48,248 bases of DNA from an uncultured Gammaproteobacteria bacterium (GCA_964636045.1 CAZWRH010000001.1:1-48248), one strand, 5' to 3'; positions 2,161 to 44,023 are shown, counted from the first letter of the stretch. A program made the numbers and translations. Notes: a model not told the origin generated them from the letters alone.

Positions 2161-3390
2161 ATGAGTTTATTTTCAAATGACGATTCTACTTATATTCCAT
2201 TATCAGAAAAAGTTAGACCAAAAACATTTGAAGATTTTTTTGGACAATCAGAATTAGTTGGTAATAATAAAATTCTAAAAAAACTTATTGAGACTGACCA
2301 GATTCCTTCAATGATTTTTTGGGGTCCTCCAGGAGTTGGTAAAACTACCTTAGCTAAAATAATTGCTAAAAAAACTAATGGAAAGTTTGTACAATTTTCA
2401 GCAGTTGTAAATGGAATTAAAGAAGTCAAAGATGTTATTCAAGAAGCAAGTCAAAATAAAAAAATGTTTAGTCAAAAAACCATTTTATTTATTGATGAAA
2501 TACATAGATTTAACAAAGCTCAACAAGACGCGTTTTTGCCTCATATTGAAAATGGTTCAATAATTTTAATTGGTGCAACAACAGAAAATCCTTCTTTTTC
2601 AGTTAATGGAGCACTTCTTTCTCGTTGTAAAGTTTTTGTTTTTAAAGCGTTAGAAAAAAGCGATTTAGAAAAAATAATCATTAATGCTATTTCAAATTTT
2701 TATAAAGATAAAAAAATTAAAATTGAAAAAGATACGATTTCTTATCTTGCTAATATGGCAAATGGAGATGCTAGAGTAGTTTTAAATGCGCTTGAAATTG
2801 CAGTTAATTTATCAAAATCTAAAAATAAAATTGTAATTAATAATGAAAAAATTAAAGAAGCATTGCAAAAAACTCATCTTTTATATGATAAAAAAGGAGA
2901 AGAGCATTATAATTTAATTTCTGCACTCCATAAATCAATGCGTGGATCAGATGCGGATGCTAGTTTATATTGGTTGGTTAGAATGTTAGAAAGCGGAGAA
3001 GATCCTCTTTATATTGCCCGACGTATTGTTAGATTTGCAAGCGAAGATATTGGTATGGCAAATTCGCAAGCTTTGGTTCAGGCAGTTGCAGCTTATGATG
3101 CCTGTCGTTTTATCGGTATGCCGGAGTGTGGAGTAAATTTGGCTCAAGCTGTTGTTTATATGGCAATGTCAAAAAAAAGCAATTTACTTTACAAAGGTTA
3201 TAATAAAGTTAAAGAAGAAGTATTAAACAATCCAAACGATCCTGTTCCACTTCATTTGAGAAATGCTCCAACAAAACTGATGAAGCAATTAGATTATGGT
3301 AAAAATTATAAATATAATCCTGATTATAAAGAACCAGTTAATCAAGACTATCTACCTTCAAAACTAAAGAACAAAAAATTTCTATCTTGA
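2161..3390 (+). CDS. rarA: Replication-associated recombination protein A (RarA/MgsA AAA+ ATPase)
   Basis: Walker A GPPGVGKTTLA, Walker [17 protein letters not shown], and the MgsA C-terminal signature YHYNLISALHKSMRGSDADASLYWLVRMLESGEDPLYIARR. Confidence 0.9.
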   Translation: MSLFSNDDSTYIPLSEKVRPKTFEDFFGQSELVGNNKILKKLIETDQIPSMIFWGPPGVGKTTLAKIIAKKTNGKFVQFSAVVNGIKEVKDVIQEASQNKKMFSQKTILFIDEIHRFNKAQQDAFLPHIENGSIILIGATTENPSFSVNGALLSRCKVFVFKALEKSDLEKIIINAISNFYKDKKIKIEKDTISYLANMANGDARVVLNALEIAVNLSKSKNKIVINNEKIKEALQKTHLLYDKKGEEHYNLISALHKSMRGSDADASLYWLVRMLESGEDPLYIARRIVRFASEDIGMANSQALVQAVAAYDACRFIGMPECGVNLAQAVVYMAMSKKSNLLYKGYNKVKEEVLNNPNDPVPLHLRNAPTKLMKQLDYGKNYKYNPDYKEPVNQDYLPSKLKNKKFLS

Positions 3391-4747: not shown

Positions 4748-4770
4748 TCCGCGAAAAAATGCGGGTTTTT
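4748..4770 (+). terminator. Weak hairpin plus T-run between grpE and dnaK (possible partial terminator or processing site)
   Basis: ccgc-gaaaaaat-gcgg followed by gttttt. The stem is only 4-5 bp. Confidence 0.3.
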
Positions 4771-6708: not shown

Positions 6709-6747
6709 GACCCGTCTACTAAAAAAGTAGACGGGCTAGTTTTTTTT
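6709..6747 (+). terminator. Rho-independent terminator after dnaK
   Basis: 9-bp GC-rich stem cccgtctac/gtagacggg (6711-6719 / 6727-6735), a 7-nt loop, then ctag plus T8. Confidence 0.8.
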
Positions 6748-16399: not shown

Positions 16400-16624
16400 A
16401 TGCCAATAATAAAATCAGCAATAAAAAAAATGAAACAGGACAAGAAAAAAACAAAGTTGAATTTTTCATATAAAAAAGCTTATAAAGAAAGTATAAAAGG
16501 AAAAAAAGATATAAAAGAAGTGTATTCAAAAATTGATAAAGCAACTAAAAAAGGAGTTTTACATAAAAACAAAGCCGCAAGACTTAAGTCACAATATGCA
16601 AAATTATCAAAAGCTAAGAAATGA
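16400..16624 (+). CDS. rpsT: 30S ribosomal protein S20
   Basis: MPIIKSAIKKMKQDKKKTKLN...KGVLHKNKAARLKSQ. The size and basic composition are typical of S20. Confidence 0.85.
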   Translation: MPIIKSAIKKMKQDKKKTKLNFSYKKAYKESIKGKKDIKEVYSKIDKATKKGVLHKNKAARLKSQYAKLSKAKK

Positions 16625-32351: not shown

Positions 32352-32368
32352 GGTAAATATTTTACCTT

Positions 32369-33703
32369 TTATTCACTCTTTTTTTTTAGCAAAAATAATG
32401 ATTCAAAAAAACTTGGAAGTTTAAAAAATTTTCTAACGATAATTACGTTTTCAAATACTCTAAACATATGATTCCAAAAGCTTTGTCTAAAAACTGAAAT
32501 ATGAGAAAAGTCATCTCCATGAGTTATATTTACCCAATGGTTTTCTTTAGTATAAATTTTATGAAGTATCCATTTTTTTGAAACCCTAATACTTTCCTCA
32601 AGTGATTTTTTTAACTTAGATCTTTCTATGTGTTCTAAAACATCAAATGATAATACCAAATCAAAAGATTCGTCTTTATAAGGAATTTTGGTGATATCTC
32701 CATATTTTATGTATGGTTTTAATTCTTTATCCGCTACTTCAAGTGCATATTTAGAAATTTCAATTCCATATGCTTCAATATCAAGTTTTCTTAAATACTT
32801 AATTAAACTTCCATTACCACAACCAATATCTAAACAATTTTTAGGATTAATAAATGTTTTTATCCAAAAAGCTCTATACATGTTAGCCAAATTTTGAAGA
32901 GTTTTTCCTAAAAATGATTCTGTATATGCGAGTGGATATTCTCCTTTTTTTCCTTCAAAATATTCTCTGTCGTAAAAGGAATTATCAACTTTAAATGGAG
33001 TAATAACAGTTCCAATAAATGGTTCCCCATTTAATACATTTTCTAAATTTCTAAATTTTTTTCCATGAGCAACGATAACGGTAAGTCTTTGTTTTTTTGC
33101 AAGTTGAGACGCGATAGGATCAAATGGTGCGTTTACTCCAGGAACCCATTCATCACCAACAATTTTTTCAAAAAAATCCCAAGTAGTTTTTTTTATTGGT
33201 TGTGCATCTTTAAAAACTCTTGGATCTTTGTCAAAAACATAATCAATATTTGACATGTTTATAATTACTGAAGCATGATAGTTTATGGCTAAAACTGTTG
33301 CACAATAATCAGTAGATCTTCCTGGTTTCCAGCCAGAACCAATAATAACTGGTTCTTTCCAATTTTTTATTTTTTTTGCGTAGTCTTTAATAATTACTGG
33401 ATGTGCGATATCTTGAAAAATAGTTCTTACAAGATGAGCATTTAGTCGAGTACTATGAATTCCTAGCCAATCCAAATCGTCATTAGTCAATTCTCCAATA
33501 ACACTTTTTCCAGCTCCAATATAACGCCTTGCAATTGATCCACCTCCAGTTACGATGATAAATCTTTTTCCTTTTTTAATTTGATCCCTAACAAAAGAAT
33601 TGAGTTTTTTTAGAAAATCAATATCAACTTCATCTCCAGGAACAATTAAACTTCCACCAACTGACAAAATTATTGTTTCTTGGTTTTTTTTATGAAATGA
33701 CAT
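32369..33703 (-). CDS. Fusion protein: archaeal-type UMP kinase / amino-acid-kinase-fold domain (N-terminal, ~aa 1-235) + class I SAM-dependent methyltransferase (C-terminal, ~aa 270-444)
   Basis: N-terminal part: ILSVGGSLIVP...FIIVTGGGSIARRY...GSGWKPGRSTD. C-terminal part: CLDIGCGNGSLIKYL (motif I) and FDLVLSFDVLEHI (motif II/III region). Confidence 0.7.
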   Translation of the reverse strand: MSFHKKNQETIILSVGGSLIVPGDEVDIDFLKKLNSFVRDQIKKGKRFIIVTGGGSIARRYIGAGKSVIGELTNDDLDWLGIHSTRLNAHLVRTIFQDIAHPVIIKDYAKKIKNWKEPVIIGSGWKPGRSTDYCATVLAINYHASVIINMSNIDYVFDKDPRVFKDAQPIKKTTWDFFEKIVGDEWVPGVNAPFDPIASQLAKKQRLTVIVAHGKKFRNLENVLNGEPFIGTVITPFKVDNSFYDREYFEGKKGEYPLAYTESFLGKTLQNLANMYRAFWIKTFINPKNCLDIGCGNGSLIKYLRKLDIEAYGIEISKYALEVADKELKPYIKYGDITKIPYKDESFDLVLSFDVLEHIERSKLKKSLEESIRVSKKWILHKIYTKENHWVNITHGDDFSHISVFRQSFWNHMFRVFENVIIVRKFFKLPSFFESLFLLKKKSE

Positions 33704-33717
33704 TTTTTTATTGGCGT

Positions 33718-33744
33718 AAAAAAACCCCCTTTTGTTTGGGGGTT
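33718..33744 (-). terminator. Intrinsic-terminator-like hairpin in the 5' leader of the UMPK::MTase gene (candidate attenuator)
   Basis: The minus strand reads AACCCCC-AAACAAAA-GGGGGTT followed by a U-run (7 U in total after GGGGG). It ends 14 nt upstream of the ATG at 33703. Confidence 0.6.
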
Positions 33745-33754
33745 ATTAATTTAC

Positions 33755-33829
33755 TTAAATTAAATAAATAATTTTTAAATCAGATTGTTTAGGGAAAAAT
33801 TTCATCCATTTGGCGAAATTTGATTGCAT
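33755..33829 (-). CDS. Candidate leaderless 24-codon leader peptide (MQSNFAKWMKFFPKQSDLKIIYLI)
   Basis: The ATG lies 10 nt downstream of the extended -10 at 33840-33848. The stop TAA lies 10 nt upstream of the terminator stem. This is speculative, because short ORFs arise easily in AT-rich DNA. Confidence 0.3.
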   Translation of the reverse strand: MQSNFAKWMKFFPKQSDLKIIYLI

Positions 33830-33839
33830 ACAAATTTAA

Positions 33840-33848
33840 ATTATAGCA
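33840..33848 (-). promoter_or_regulatory. Extended -10 (TGcTATAAT) on the minus strand driving the leader / UMPK::MTase-recF-tRNA-Ser operon
   Basis: The minus strand reads acTGCTATAATttaaatttgtATG. Confidence 0.5.
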
Positions 33849-33853
33849 GTTTT

Positions 33854-33882
33854 TTGACAAAAAACAACGCTTATAGTACAAT
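33854..33882 (+). promoter_or_regulatory. Near-consensus sigma-70 promoter TTGACA-17-TACAAT, 9 nt before the ATG at 33892
   Basis: TTGACA at 33854-33859, a 17-nt spacer, TACAAT at 33877-33882. There is no SD, so a leaderless or ~2-nt-leader mRNA is predicted. Confidence 0.65.
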
Positions 33883-33891
33883 TTTGTTGTA

Positions 33892-34746
33892 ATGAGGCGC
33901 TTAAGACTAACTATAACCCTAAAAGAATCTACAGTTTTAGATGTTGATAAATTAATCGATGGACAAAAACTTAGAAATAGATCTCATGCTATTGAGTATA
34001 TTCTTAACCAAAATTTAAACCAAAAAGTATATAAAGCAATAATTCTTGCTGGAGGTCGAGGAACAAAACTTAGACCATACACTTTAGAAACTCCAAAATC
34101 TCTTCTTTTAATCAAAGGACAACCTATTATTAAATATTTAATTGAGAATTTAAAAAAATCTGGAGTAACTGATATTATGATCTGCGTTGGCCATTTGGGA
34201 AATAAAATAAAGGATTATTTAAAAGATGGAAAAGAATTTGGAGTAAAAATTTCTTATTCAGAAGAAAAAAAACCACTTGGAACTGGTGGTGCAATTTCTA
34301 AGATAAAAGATTTTATTGATGATAAGCCATTTTTAGTTTTACATGGAGATATTCTTATTGATTTAAATTTAAAAGATTTGCTTGAATATCATAGCGAACA
34401 GGGTGGCTCAATTATAGGAACAATTGCATTATCTCAAGTCAATAATTCTTCAATGTGGGGACAGTTTAGAATGCATGGTACAAAAATAGTTAATTTTATT
34501 GATAAAACAAAAAAAGGAGAAGAAGAGAGTCATTTAATTAATACTGGAGTTTATGTTTTTGAAAAGAAAATATTTGATTATTTTCCAACTGGCCAAAAAA
34601 CTTTTTTACTTGAAGATATTATAAAAAATTTAATTAAAGATAGAAAAATTACTGGCTTTGTTTTTGAAGGTCAATGGTTTGATGTTGGAACGCCAGAAAC
34701 TTACGAAGAAGCGATAAAATCTTTTTTATTAAAATCCTCCACCTGA
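33892..34746 (+). CDS. Fusion protein: N-terminal ribbon-helix-helix (CopG/Arc/MetJ-like) domain + sugar-1-phosphate nucleotidyltransferase
   Basis: aa 1-45 read MRRLRLTITLKESTVLDVDKLIDG...NRSHAIEYILNQNL (beta-alpha-alpha RHH pattern). This is followed by ILAGGRGTKLRPYTLETPKSLL (the NTP_transferase G-loop) and ...LGTGGAI...VLHGDIL.... Confidence 0.7.
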   Translation: MRRLRLTITLKESTVLDVDKLIDGQKLRNRSHAIEYILNQNLNQKVYKAIILAGGRGTKLRPYTLETPKSLLLIKGQPIIKYLIENLKKSGVTDIMICVGHLGNKIKDYLKDGKEFGVKISYSEEKKPLGTGGAISKIKDFIDDKPFLVLHGDILIDLNLKDLLEYHSEQGGSIIGTIALSQVNNSSMWGQFRMHGTKIVNFIDKTKKGEEESHLINTGVYVFEKKIFDYFPTGQKTFLLEDIIKNLIKDRKITGFVFEGQWFDVGTPETYEEAIKSFLLKSST

Positions 34747-36050: not shown

Positions 36051-39000
36051 TTATATTTCTTTATTATTAGTGCTTAAACATTTAGGACAAATAATCGTTG
36101 AATTTTTTACTATTTCAGTTTCAAAGTTGTTTTGACATTTTTCACATTGAAATTTCTTTATAATTTTATTTTGCATTTTTTTATCAGAAAATTCAAGCTT
36201 TTCAATATTAAATATAAAATGTTCTCCTTCAAAATCTAAATTTATCTGATCTGATTCTTCAAGTTTTTTTTCAATGATTAGAGTTGATATTGGGTTTTCA
36301 ATCAAATTTTGGATAGTTCTTTTTAGTGGTCTAGCACCATAAATTGGATCAAATCCAACCCTAACAACCTCTTTAATTGCATTCTCTTTATAGTTGAATC
36401 CGATATTTTGTTCTTCAAGTAATTTTTTTAAGCCTTTTAATTGAAGATCAACAATCTTTGTCATGTGTTGATATTTTAATGGTTCAAAAATAATTACTTC
36501 ATCAAATCTATTAATAAGTTCTGGTTTAAAAAATTTTCTAAGTTCCAACATTACTTTGCTTTTCATATTTGAATAAGTATTATTTTCAAGTTCGACTTCT
36601 TTTTTCTTTTTTTGTTCAAGTTCTTTTTCAAGAGGAAAATCTTTTCCAAAATATTCTTTAAGTAAACTCATTTTGAAGTTTTCTTCATTAATTTTTCTTA
36701 TCCAAATCTTTTCTCCTGCGATTATATATTCATTTCCAGATGGATCAAAGGTGTGAATGTCCCAATAATTAAATGGTAAATTCAAATCTTCTTTATTTTT
36801 AAAATAATTTTTTAAAGTACCAGTTTCCCAATCATTTTGACCTTCTTTTCTTTTCCAATATCTATCTTTAAAAGTGATAATTTCATATTCATCCGCAGTA
36901 AATGTATGGGTTTTTAGTTTTGCAGTTGGTAGCTGTTCATCAGGTGAGTCTGGCATAGCATTAACTACAACAGAATCTTTAAAATATTCAATTAGATTAA
37001 TAGTTTTCCATATTTTTGAAGTGGTAGACGATCTTATATATGCAATTTCTTTTAATGTAATTATTTCAATTCCTTTTTGAGAAATTGCGTGAGTGTCAAA
37101 ACCAGAAATTGGAAAGCTATAATTTGAATCTTCAATTTTTTCTCCAGCAAAATAATCATAAAGCATTTTACTTTGCCATGTTGTTGTTTTTGTTGAATCT
37201 AAATTTGGTTGTTTTTCAAAAATTTTATTTATGATTGTTAACATTTCTCTTCCTCGAGGTGAGAAAGTATATGTTGATAAGATAGTTGGTTCTTCAATTT
37301 CAACTTTCCCAGTTTTTAAAATTTCATCTTGAATAAGTGTACTTCCTATATTTGAAGTACAAATAATTACTGTATTTTTAAAAGAAATAGTTCTTCCTTT
37401 ATTATCTGTTAGTCGTCCATCATCAAGTATTTGAAGAAGGATATTAAAAATATCTGGATGAGCTTTTTCTACCTCGTCAAATAAAACAACAGAGTAAGGT
37501 TTTCTTCTAACTGATTCGGTAAGTTTTCCACCTTCATCATATCCAACATATCCAGGAGGTGCACCAAGTAATTTAGCAACTTCATGTTTTTCCATGTATT
37601 CAGTCATATCAAGCCTTACAATAGCTTCTTCCTGGCCAAATAATATTTCTGCTAAGGTTTTAGCAAGTTCTGTTTTACCAACTCCAGTAGGTCCCATGAA
37701 AACAAAACTTCCGATTGGTTTTTGAGTATTTTTAAGTCCAGCACGTCCTCTTCTAACAGCTTGTGCTACTGCTGAAACTGCAACTTCTTGATTAATAAGT
37801 CTTTCATGCATAATATCTTCAAGCTTTGCAAGTTTTTCAGTTTCTGAATCAGAAATTTTTGTGACTGGTATACCAGTCCAACGACTAACAATATCTTTAA
37901 TAATCTCAACACTAACAGATGAAGTTGTCTGACCTTTTTTTATTTTAAATTCTTCTTGTTTTTGATTTAACACTACTTGTAAATCGTCGATTTTTGGTTG
38001 AAGAATTCCAATTTTAACTTTATTTAGTGCTTTTTGAGCTTCTTGAAGTTCTTGTTTATATTCAGAAAGTCTTTCTTCAGTACTTCTTATTTCTTCAGGT
38101 AAAGAAATAAGTGGCAATCTAACAGCTGCTGCAGATTCATCAATTAAATCAACTGCTTTATCAGGTAAAAACCTATCTCCAACATACCTTTTTGATAATT
38201 TGACAGCTGCTTCAAGGGTATCATCAGGAATTTTTACCCGATGATATGATTCGTATTTGTCTCTTGTTGCTTTAAGCATTTTTATTGCTTGCTCTTCGGT
38301 AGGTTCAGGAACTAAAACTGGTTGGAATCGTCTCTCTAATGCTGCATCTTTTTCAATATATTTTCTATATTCTGTTAAAGTTGTTGCTCCAATTATTTGA
38401 AGTTCTCCTCTAGCGAGTGAAGGTTTTAAAAAATTTGAAGCATCAAGCGTTCCTTCAGCACCTGCTCCAGCTCCTACTAAATTATGAATTTCATCTATAA
38501 ATAAAATTATTTTTCCTTTTGCATTTTTAACTTCTTCGATTAATGACTTCATTCTTTCTTCAAATTCACCTCGATGAGAAGTACCGGCTAAAACGCTCAT
38601 TAAATCAAGTTGTAATATTTTTTTATCAAGCAATGATTCTGGAACTTCTTTTTTTACAATTTTTTGAGCTAATCCTTCAACTATAGCTGTTTTTCCAACT
38701 CCAGCTTCTCCAACTAAGACAGGATTATTCTTAGTTCTTCTTGATAGATTGTGAATAACTCTTTCAATAACATCCGATCTTTCAACAACAGGATCAAGAA
38801 GTCCTTGTTGAGCCTTTTGAGTTAAGTCGTTTGTAAATAATTCTAAAACACTTTTTTTCTTTTCTTTTTCTTCACCATTTACTCCTTCTTTTTTACCTGT
38901 AATTTTTTTATTTAATTCTTCTTTTTTTATACCGAGTTTAACCAAGATGTTAGCGGCAACACCTTCTTGTTCTTCAAAAAGTGACAATAAAATATGTTCT

Positions 39001-39569
39001 GGAGAAATAAATTCAAAACCCATTTTTCTAGCAGTAACAAGTGCTTTATCTAAAATTCTTTTAACTCTTGGTGATGGCTGTGGGTTGGTTGGTGCGGTTC
39101 CTTTTTTATAAATTTTATCTAGTTCTTGATCAATTATTTGAGGTTGTATTTTAATATCAACAAAAAATTTATATATTTCTGGATCAGTTAATAGTCCATG
39201 AAGCAAATGCTCAGTATCAACAAAATCATTTTGAAGATCTTTAGCTTTATTTTGAGCTATAACAAATACTTTATTGGATCGTTGTGTAAAATGAGTCATT
39301 AGATCAAGATCTGGTGCTTGAGGTGTTTTTTGAACAGGAGTCTCTTTTTTTTCTGTAGCAACAATTGGAGTCTCTTTTTTTTCTTCTTCTTCAATAAAAT
39401 GTGCTGTATTCAAATTGTTAGTTGATTTTTGAGTTACCTCAGCAACTTCTTCTTTAATAACAACTTTTTCATCTTGTTTGATGTCTGGCGGATTATTAGA
39501 AACAGCTGTTACTGGTTGATTTGGAGATGGGTTTTTAGAATTTGAAAACATATCAAAAATACCTGCCAT
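36051..39569 (-). CDS. Atypical ClpB/ClpC-family double-ring AAA+ unfoldase: disordered N-tail, Clp_N repeats, D1, short M-domain, D2 with a ~240-aa four-repeat insertion, C-terminal zinc ribbon
   Basis: Clp_N repeats are present (...TEHLLHGLL..., ...[10 protein letters not shown]...). D1 has Walker A GEAGVGKT and Walker [10 protein letters not shown]2 has [37 protein letters not shown] and the pore loop GYVGY, plus GARPLKR sensor-2. The preferred start is ATG 39569 (MAGIFDMF...). The track start at 39605 is a TTG that coincides with a TTGACA -35 box. Confidence 0.9.
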
Positions 39570-39576
39570 AATTTTC

Positions 39577-39605
39577 ATTATTAAAAAAATAAAAACATTT
39601 GTCAA
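39577..39605 (-). promoter_or_regulatory. Promoter TTGACA-17-AATAAT, 7 nt before the AAA+ gene ATG (39569)
   Basis: On the minus strand, TTGACA lies at 39605..39600, followed by a 17-nt spacer. AATAAT lies at 39582..39577, followed by gaaaatt and the ATG. Confidence 0.55.
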
Positions 39606-43974: not shown

Positions 43975-44005
43975 AAAAAAAGCGCTCTCTTATTTAGAGA
44001 GCGCT
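43975..44005 (-). terminator. Rho-independent terminator after groEL
   Basis: 9-bp stem agcgctctc/gagagcgct with a 7-nt loop. On the minus strand it is followed by a T-run (plus-strand A6 at 43975-43980). Confidence 0.8.
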
Positions 44006-44023
44006 TTTAAATAATTCTTTTTT

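Follow-up and report, generated by a model that had tools for sequence, protein, structure and literature searches.

A candidate ribosome-controlled attenuator with a near-leaderless upstream ORF precedes the UMP kinase gene of a Candidatus Roizmanbacteria genome

The window analysed here, a single stretch of 48,248 nucleotides with a G+C content of ~27%, belongs to a genome of Candidatus Roizmanbacteria (CPR); public records label the homologues of its proteins as Candidatus Roizmanbacteria, Microgenomates or Patescibacteria. On the minus strand, positions 32369..33703 encode a 444-residue protein in which an archaeal-type UMP kinase (pyrH) is joined to a SAM-dependent methyltransferase. Pfam assigns it an N-terminal AA_kinase and a C-terminal Methyltransf_11 domain, and the N-terminal domain scored 182 bits against TIGR02076 (pyrH_arch), for which the cutoff is 158. 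A total of 756 homologues of this kinase::methyltransferase fusion were identified; the fusion is kept in hundreds of Microgenomates proteins, and the kinase occurs alone (about 235 residues) in other lineages. The intergenic region 33704..33891 separates the fusion gene from a divergent plus-strand gene, an NTP_transferase, whose promoter (TTGACA-17-TACAAT, 33854..33882) ends 9 nt before its ATG at 33892. The -35 box of this promoter adjoins that of the promoter serving the kinase leader, so that the 14 nucleotides 33854..33867 (TTGTTTTTTGTCAA) are made up of two back-to-back -35 boxes, and relatives carry a conserved near-palindrome here (TTGAYTTTTGTCAA). This element could render the two promoters mutually exclusive, or could be an operator. 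On the other side of the kinase gene, the preliminary description of this DNA had drawn a single operon running on through a recF-like gene and a tRNA-Ser gene; the extent of this operon is uncertain because the recF-like gene has a promoter-like site of its own, TAAAAT-N7-ATG, in the 17-nt gap 32352..32368 (minus strand) behind the kinase gene. The regulation discussed below may thus concern the kinase gene only, with recF and tRNA-Ser independent of the leader promoter.

Reading the minus strand towards the kinase gene, we recognized a sigma-70-type promoter at 33840..33867, composed of a -35-like TTGTTT (33867..33862), a 16-nt spacer and an extended -10 box, TGCTATAAT (TGcTATAAT, 33848..33840). 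Only 10 nt downstream of the -10 box, at 33829, lies the ATG of a near-leaderless upstream ORF (uORF) of 24 codons plus stop, MQSNFAKWMKFFPKQSDLKIIYLI (33755..33829, stop codon 33757..33755), which a 10-nt spacer (33745..33754) separates from the base of a hairpin. The hairpin and a run of seven U form a predicted intrinsic terminator (33718..33744), called by a terminator scan and by folding; its 7-bp stem (33744..33723, AACCCCC/GGGGGTT, five G-C pairs) closes an 8-nt loop, AAACAAAA, and the seven T occupy 33724..33718. When the whole leader was folded, the MFE and centroid structures each retained this hairpin, whose predicted energy is -12.3 kcal/mol. From the end of the T-run to the UMP kinase ATG at 33703 there are 14 nt (ACGCCAATAAAAAA); this A-rich stretch (33704..33717), which we read as the pyrH translation initiation region (ACGCCAAUAAAAAA), showed on inspection no Shine-Dalgarno sequence and no -10 box. 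The coordinates that the preliminary description had given for promoter, uORF, hairpin, U-run and ATG were each found to be correct on re-reading. The number of terminator-like hairpins across the region is by itself at chance level (4, versus 3.1 +/- 1.8 in shuffles), and it is conservation in relatives, rather than this count, that places the terminator beyond chance.

A leader of this kind stands beside a different habit of gene starts in the window. Most unit-leading genes there have a TATAAT-like box 5–13 nt before the ATG, a position so near the start codon that leaderless mRNAs are implied, and the earlier remark that operon-leading genes carry a -10 box 5–10 nt before their ATG held when the window was re-checked. 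The leadered genes grpE, dnaK, groES and groEL have an AAAAAT-ATG start context, and the pyrH start resembles them in this. A short gene at 16400..16624 (plus strand), which falls under the 80-residue cutoff of the ORF list and which, by its KNKAAR motif, appears to resemble the gene for ribosomal protein S20, has a strong Shine-Dalgarno sequence upstream (AAAGGAGGTGA); this genome therefore uses Shine-Dalgarno-led initiation alongside leaderless and A-rich starts.

The comparison drew on 160 further loci taken from GTDB genomes and from metagenomes, to which exact protein look-up added three closer relatives; in the contig scan a single-protein query found no relatives, and an alignment query did. 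Contigs encoding an identical protein also had an identical leader and were set aside as uninformative. A terminator lies at most 70 nt upstream of the start codon at 53 of 83 fusion-type UMP kinase loci, as against 2 of the 334 remaining ORFs in the same loci that reach 150 residues, so that the terminator is specific to pyrH within these loci. The full layout, with uORF frame, hairpin and spacing, is kept upstream of pyrH at 48 of 76 non-identical fusion-type loci; these leaders are related by descent, and locus counts overstate the number of independent observations. The shared order is a strong TATAAT promoter, a start codon 10–22 nt further on, a short ORF, a GC-rich hairpin, U6-9 and the pyrH ATG. 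A TATAAT-type box occurs at the matching place in 51 related leaders, and at hairpin loci the end of the stem lies a median of 17 nt from the pyrH ATG. The hairpins themselves are diverse, with 32 different versions of the 5' arm in 44 leaders (median energy -11.2 kcal/mol). RNAalifold returned no structure from a MAFFT alignment of 34 hairpins because their variable loops misalign the 5' arms, and hairpins were hence counted per sequence. The layout was found in two gene contexts, in one of which a T4SS-pilin-like gene on the same strand precedes it and in the other of which the NTP_transferase gene points away from it; this indicates that the leader travels with pyrH and not with its neighbour.

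The distribution of -10 boxes shows how the kinase gene is reached by RNA polymerase. A perfect TATAAT 3–16 nt from the pyrH ATG was found at none of 48 hairpin-bearing loci, and a 5/6 match at one of them, versus 19 of 28 hairpin-free loci with a perfect box and 21 of 28 with at least a 5/6 match, there located 9–14 nt from the ATG. These counts uphold the earlier contention that hairpin and ATG leave no room for a promoter between them, and a promoter at that place was rejected. With a promoter only upstream of the hairpin, the kinase gene must be transcribed through the terminator. The A content of positions -8..-1 of pyrH is 52% at hairpin-bearing versus 28% at leaderless loci (p = 2.6e-5), which makes the start context at hairpin loci one of the leadered type. 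Two further candidates were dismissed. The AAAAAT that abuts the ATG, if taken as a -10 box, would start transcription inside the gene, which has no conserved downstream start codon and an invariant M1; a uORF-kinase fusion or programmed bypass was rejected as well, the kinase N-terminus being the same whether or not a leader is present.

The closest relative, L165 (76% protein identity; logan:SRR28423913, positions 2462..2500 compared with 33704..33839 of the window), has the homologous promoter, ttgtcaaagaaactggTATAAT, followed after 11 nt by the pyrH ATG, and the leader is absent; the window has an extra 126 nt exactly between promoter and gene. A gap of only 63 nt, likewise without a leader, is found in the next relative (73% identity); relatives of 69% identity have a leader. 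The leader is a clearly delimited element of ~125 nt. Dozens of Roizmanbacteria genomes conserve it, yet close relatives can differ in whether they carry it, a pattern that points to repeated loss or gain of the whole module. That the closest relative does without it indicates that the device is dispensable, not essential. Taken together, the comparative data strongly support the core of what had been proposed for this locus, namely a transcription attenuator built from a near-leaderless uORF and a terminator that the kinase gene has to be read through.

We then considered what is conserved in the uORF, taking as its start, in each of 44 non-identical leaders, the ATG that comes first behind the best -10 box. 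In all 44 the first in-frame stop lies at most 23 nt ahead of the hairpin base or else past it; the same holds for 17 and 16 of the 44 in frames +1 and +2, and for a mean of 21.9 (sd 2.9, maximum 33) in 5000 shuffles of the leader bodies, the distance from ATG to hairpin ranging from 5 to 128 nt across leaders. Stops within -3..+20 nt of the hairpin were found in 37 of 44 (4 and 10 in the other frames; 9.2 +/- 2.5 in shuffles), and the 36 uORFs that end before the hairpin leave a median gap of 15 nt (quartiles 12–18). Leaders that the automatic procedure had mis-called or left without a uORF, and those with a uORF ending past the hairpin base, were inspected individually: four (L006, L014, L026 and L041) fit the layout if GTG is accepted as start or if another -10 box or ATG close by is taken, and in six (L010, L018, L022, L023, L031 and L102) the ORF enters or crosses the hairpin. 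The encoded peptides differ from leader to leader, both in sequence and in size (3–44 codons). In the pairs L013/L015 and L040/L042 and the group L012/L056 the position of the stop is kept and the peptide has diverged, and the uORFs of the 69%-identity relatives start MQK, that of the window MQS. By this comparative evidence the uORF is selected as an open frame and not as a peptide, and a frame kept open up to a terminator offers a comparative signature for regulatory uORFs with unconserved peptides.

The spacing between stop codon and hairpin calls for a caveat, as gaps of 9–22 nt are also found behind ordinary genes of the window (grpE, 9 nt; groEL, ~15 nt; dnaK) and spacing alone is therefore not diagnostic of an attenuator; the case rests on the conserved open frame, the position of the promoter, and the mutual exclusion of hairpin and gene-proximal promoter. 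The terminator-like hairpins at those genes lie at 4748..4765 (plus strand, between grpE and dnaK), about 6711..6745 (plus strand, between dnaK and the next gene) and 44008..43978 (minus strand, after groEL). The first follows the grpE stop by 9 nt and leaves ~10 nt to the dnaK ATG. The ATGs following these hairpins have an AAAAAT/AAATAAAT context, except that after groEL, which is preceded by TATAAT-ATT. Partial terminators between cistrons may be a general device for tuning expression in this genome.

Hairpins of like spacing at grpE-dnaK and behind dnaK are also what one would cite for reading the pyrH hairpin as a constitutive leaky terminator or insulator, which would hold UMP kinase at a low fixed level and block incoming transcripts, the uORF being a by-product of a promoter of the leaderless-RNA type. 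Such transcripts could come from the pilin operon or be antisense RNA across the NTP_transferase gene: the T4SS-pilin-like gene lacks its own terminator and extends into the 3' end of NTP_transferase, and in relatives a pilin gene lies directly upstream. An insulator, however, would be expected upstream of the promoter and not between promoter and gene, and the leader is present in both genomic contexts. A by-product uORF should moreover show early stops as the other frames do, yet none of the 44 uORFs stops more than 23 nt before the hairpin, whereas 27 and 28 of 44 do so in the other two frames. We consider this explanation unlikely. As to the neighbouring genes themselves, the 3' ends of NTP_transferase (plus strand) and the T4SS-pilin-like gene (minus strand) overlap by 18 nt (34729..34746), and no terminator was found between them in the window. 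Minus-strand transcripts of the pilin operon could therefore run antisense through NTP_transferase up to the hairpin at 33744, and the hairpin may also stop these transcripts.

A further explanation is that the short transcript is itself the product, a micro-protein or small RNA, and that the kinase is expressed by leakage only. Promoter, ORF and terminator do together make a complete unit, in which the distance from stop to terminator resembles that at ordinary genes of this genome. The peptide, though, is conserved in neither sequence nor length, the leader body has no conserved nucleotide motif and no Rfam match, and the unit occurs only before pyrH, where it replaces the gene's own promoter, all of which leaves this explanation with very little probability.

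Other modes of regulation would be expected to leave traces in the leader, and we looked for these. Pairing of the leader with either arm of the hairpin was indistinguishable from that in shuffled leaders (mean z +0.04 and -0.07 across 37 leaders). No 5-7-mer in the leader bodies was common beyond shuffle expectation, and the uORFs contained no codon runs, with only Lys, Ile and Gln diffusely enriched. A search of the whole window against Rfam 15 brought only tRNA to its gathering threshold, so the leader contains no known riboswitch family at threshold, as the preliminary description would have it; at a permissive E-value the best match in the leader was Phe_leader (25.4 bits, threshold 55), which spans the terminator only, with 59 model positions deleted, and was discarded as an artefact. 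These searches weigh on the idea that the terminator is regulated without direct action of a ribosome upon it, through a leader peptide acting on an antiterminator, a small riboswitch, or a PyrR/TRAP-like protein. The combination of leader peptide and terminator agrees with it, as do the modest enrichment of Lys, Ile and Gln in the uORFs and, at face value, the weak Phe_leader match of 25 bits. Against an antiterminator, arm pairing is no better than in shuffled leaders and the terminator is intact in the MFE and centroid folds. A riboswitch sits poorly with the lack of any k-mer common beyond chance or Rfam family at threshold and with an ATG-to-hairpin length of 5 to 128 nt, amino acid sensing with the lack of single-codon runs, and an RNA-binding protein with loops and arms so variable that they offer no fixed site; the Phe_leader match covers the terminator alone, with its 59 deleted positions. 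We regard indirect regulation of this sort as quite improbable.

Base composition bears on the nature of any signal. The leader had been described as rich in U-tracts, which is not the case: from uORF ATG to hairpin base the window leader has 35 A versus 33 T in 85 nt, the pooled leaders of relatives have 37% A versus 35% T, and neither shows a U bias or an obvious pause signal. The lack of a detectable antiterminator fits the proposed pyrBI/pyrE-type geometry; the accompanying proposal of UTP sensing finds no support in leaders that are not U-rich, so that UTP as the signal remains a guess. It is plausible in that the product is a UMP kinase, and no sequence feature points to it specifically. 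A related thought is that the attenuator might sense nucleotides through polymerase alone, with translation irrelevant; precedents are pyrG, pyrC, upp and codBA, which use reiterative transcription or a switch of start site. That the regulated gene acts on pyrimidine nucleotides would suit this, as would the tACATAt motif near the presumed start in ~14 leaders. The presumed start site in the window, TTAAATTTGTATG, nevertheless has no homopolymer run, no segment could pair with a hairpin arm after slippage, and selection for an open frame is left unexplained; we give this mechanism hardly any credence.

Based on these comparisons, we consider it probable that the element is an attenuator of the pyrBI/pyrE type acting on pyrH::methyltransferase, in which the lead ribosome would directly suppress the terminator. 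RNA polymerase would start from the extended -10 promoter 2–4 nt upstream of the uORF AUG, and a ribosome would load at this near-leaderless AUG and translate a short uORF of arbitrary sequence that ends ~10–20 nt ahead of a strong intrinsic terminator, itself 14 nt upstream of the kinase AUG. Without an antiterminator, the outcome would be decided by a kinetic race between ribosome and polymerase. If the lead ribosome is close as the 3' arm emerges, folding of the hairpin would be hindered, polymerase would read through, and the kinase would be translated from its A-rich leadered start; if the ribosome lags or has never loaded, the hairpin would form and a transcript of ~115 nt would be released. 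Slow transcription relative to translation, for instance at low NTP or UTP, would accordingly raise expression, and slow translation or a shortage of ribosomes would lower it. A general read-out of translation versus transcription speed fits equally well as UTP sensing. The original suggestion that a ribosome finishing the uORF would overlap the 5' arm needs adjusting, as the 10-nt gap would let the ribosome abut the hairpin but gives no clear overlap.

Such a mechanism would presuppose coupling of transcription and translation in this phylum, which is not known from CPR bacteria. The distances involved can be compared with those in E. coli, where repression of terminators by the lead ribosome is graded: a terminator a few nucleotides behind a translated ORF is nearly fully repressed, termination efficiency climbs gradually to a maximum beyond ~27–30 nt from the stop codon, and values at 17–18 nt lie between 0.12 and 0.8, according to sequence (PMC4824070). 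By analogy, the 9–19 nt gaps of the leaders described here fit the ribosome-sensitive range of E. coli. One argument against an attenuator is that the leader is so short that polymerase, unless it pauses, may reach the terminator before any ribosome does. A more specific version of the mechanism, which we put forward tentatively and as the less probable form, would turn this brevity to use: a minimal attenuator without antiterminator, in which loading of a 70S ribosome on a 5'-terminal AUG races polymerase over 50–120 nt, and which would gauge free-ribosome or initiation capacity against transcription speed.

The attenuator proposed here resembles several known systems in part. As in the pyrBI operon of E. 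coli and Salmonella, a pyrimidine-nucleotide gene is separated from its promoter by an intrinsic terminator. The pyrL ORF of pyrBI has 44 codons; it is Shine-Dalgarno-led and runs through the terminator, whereas in these leaders the AUG lies at the 5' end or close to it and the ORF usually stops 9–19 nt before the hairpin, with ~6–8 of 44 running into or through it. Suppression of the pyrL terminator by the ribosome is established (PMC5021804, citing Roland et al. 1988), and the likeness would extend to a leader-ORF ribosome that suppresses termination directly, without an antiterminator (PMC5021804; PMC4824070). The pyrL leader also differs in having UTP-sensing U-rich pause sites, the leaders here being without U bias, and in sharing no sequence homology with them. 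At E. coli rph-pyrE an upstream ORF ends shortly before the terminator hairpin with the pyrimidine gene immediately after, and read-through needs translation to the end of that ORF. The locus here is alike in having an ORF that ends near the hairpin and a pyrimidine gene directly after; the difference is that the upstream ORF of rph-pyrE is a real gene (RNase PH), and here it is an unconserved mini-ORF of 3–44 codons with its own promoter. The trp, his, leu, phe and thr attenuators share the order of short leader peptide ORF, intrinsic terminator and regulated gene, but they need mutually exclusive antiterminator and terminator folds and a regulatory codon run, neither of which was found in these leaders. 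In the mycobacterial polycysteine attenuators, too, a leaderless short ORF comes first and the position of the ribosome controls downstream genes; those short ORFs sense cysteine via tracts of Cys codons, and their effect is translational, a ribosome-binding site being unmasked (Canestrari et al., bioRxiv 10.1101/834739). The present leader differs in having no codon tract and, as its predicted output, an intrinsic transcription terminator. Set against what direct ribosome occlusion entails, the leader has a terminator following the gene's only promoter, a presumably translated ORF running up to the hairpin, and no antiterminator.

In the searchable literature we found no description of a pyrH attenuator, nor of leader peptides in CPR, and as far as its sequence and conservation allow us to judge, the pyrH leader is most likely a real, undescribed ribosome-controlled switch. 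It is best classed as a member of the already known pyrBI/pyrE kind, the new aspects being its near-leaderless uORF, its position upstream of pyrH and its occurrence in CPR. We know of almost nothing on gene regulation in CPR/Patescibacteria, because these organisms are uncultured; they have reduced genomes and mostly leaderless mRNAs, and in organisms without de novo nucleotide synthesis UMP kinase is the gateway from salvaged UMP to UTP and CTP. If the attenuator is what it appears to be, ribosome-mediated attenuation would exist beyond the classical model phyla, would work with a leaderless uORF and without an antiterminator, and would make UMP kinase a regulated step. If, in addition, expression is set by a race between ribosome and polymerase, pyrimidine nucleotide phosphorylation would be tied to translational capacity, and the leader would be the first evidence of transcription-translation coupling serving gene control in CPR/Patescibacteria.

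Two minor observations were made along the way. In the window, a ClpB-like ORF of 1184 residues (36051..39605, minus strand) has a long N-terminus and ~280 residues without matches between its second AAA domain (629-763) and its D2-small domain (1043-1122); this stretch may be an insertion, and the ORF measures 854 to 1296 residues in relatives. Among the pyrH leaders, ~14 with a -10-to-ATG spacing of 16–22 nt (including L013, L015, L019-L022, L030, L040, L042, L095, L098 and L107) share the motif tACAYAt at the presumed transcription start, which could mark a sequence favoured for initiation or a pause site close to the promoter.
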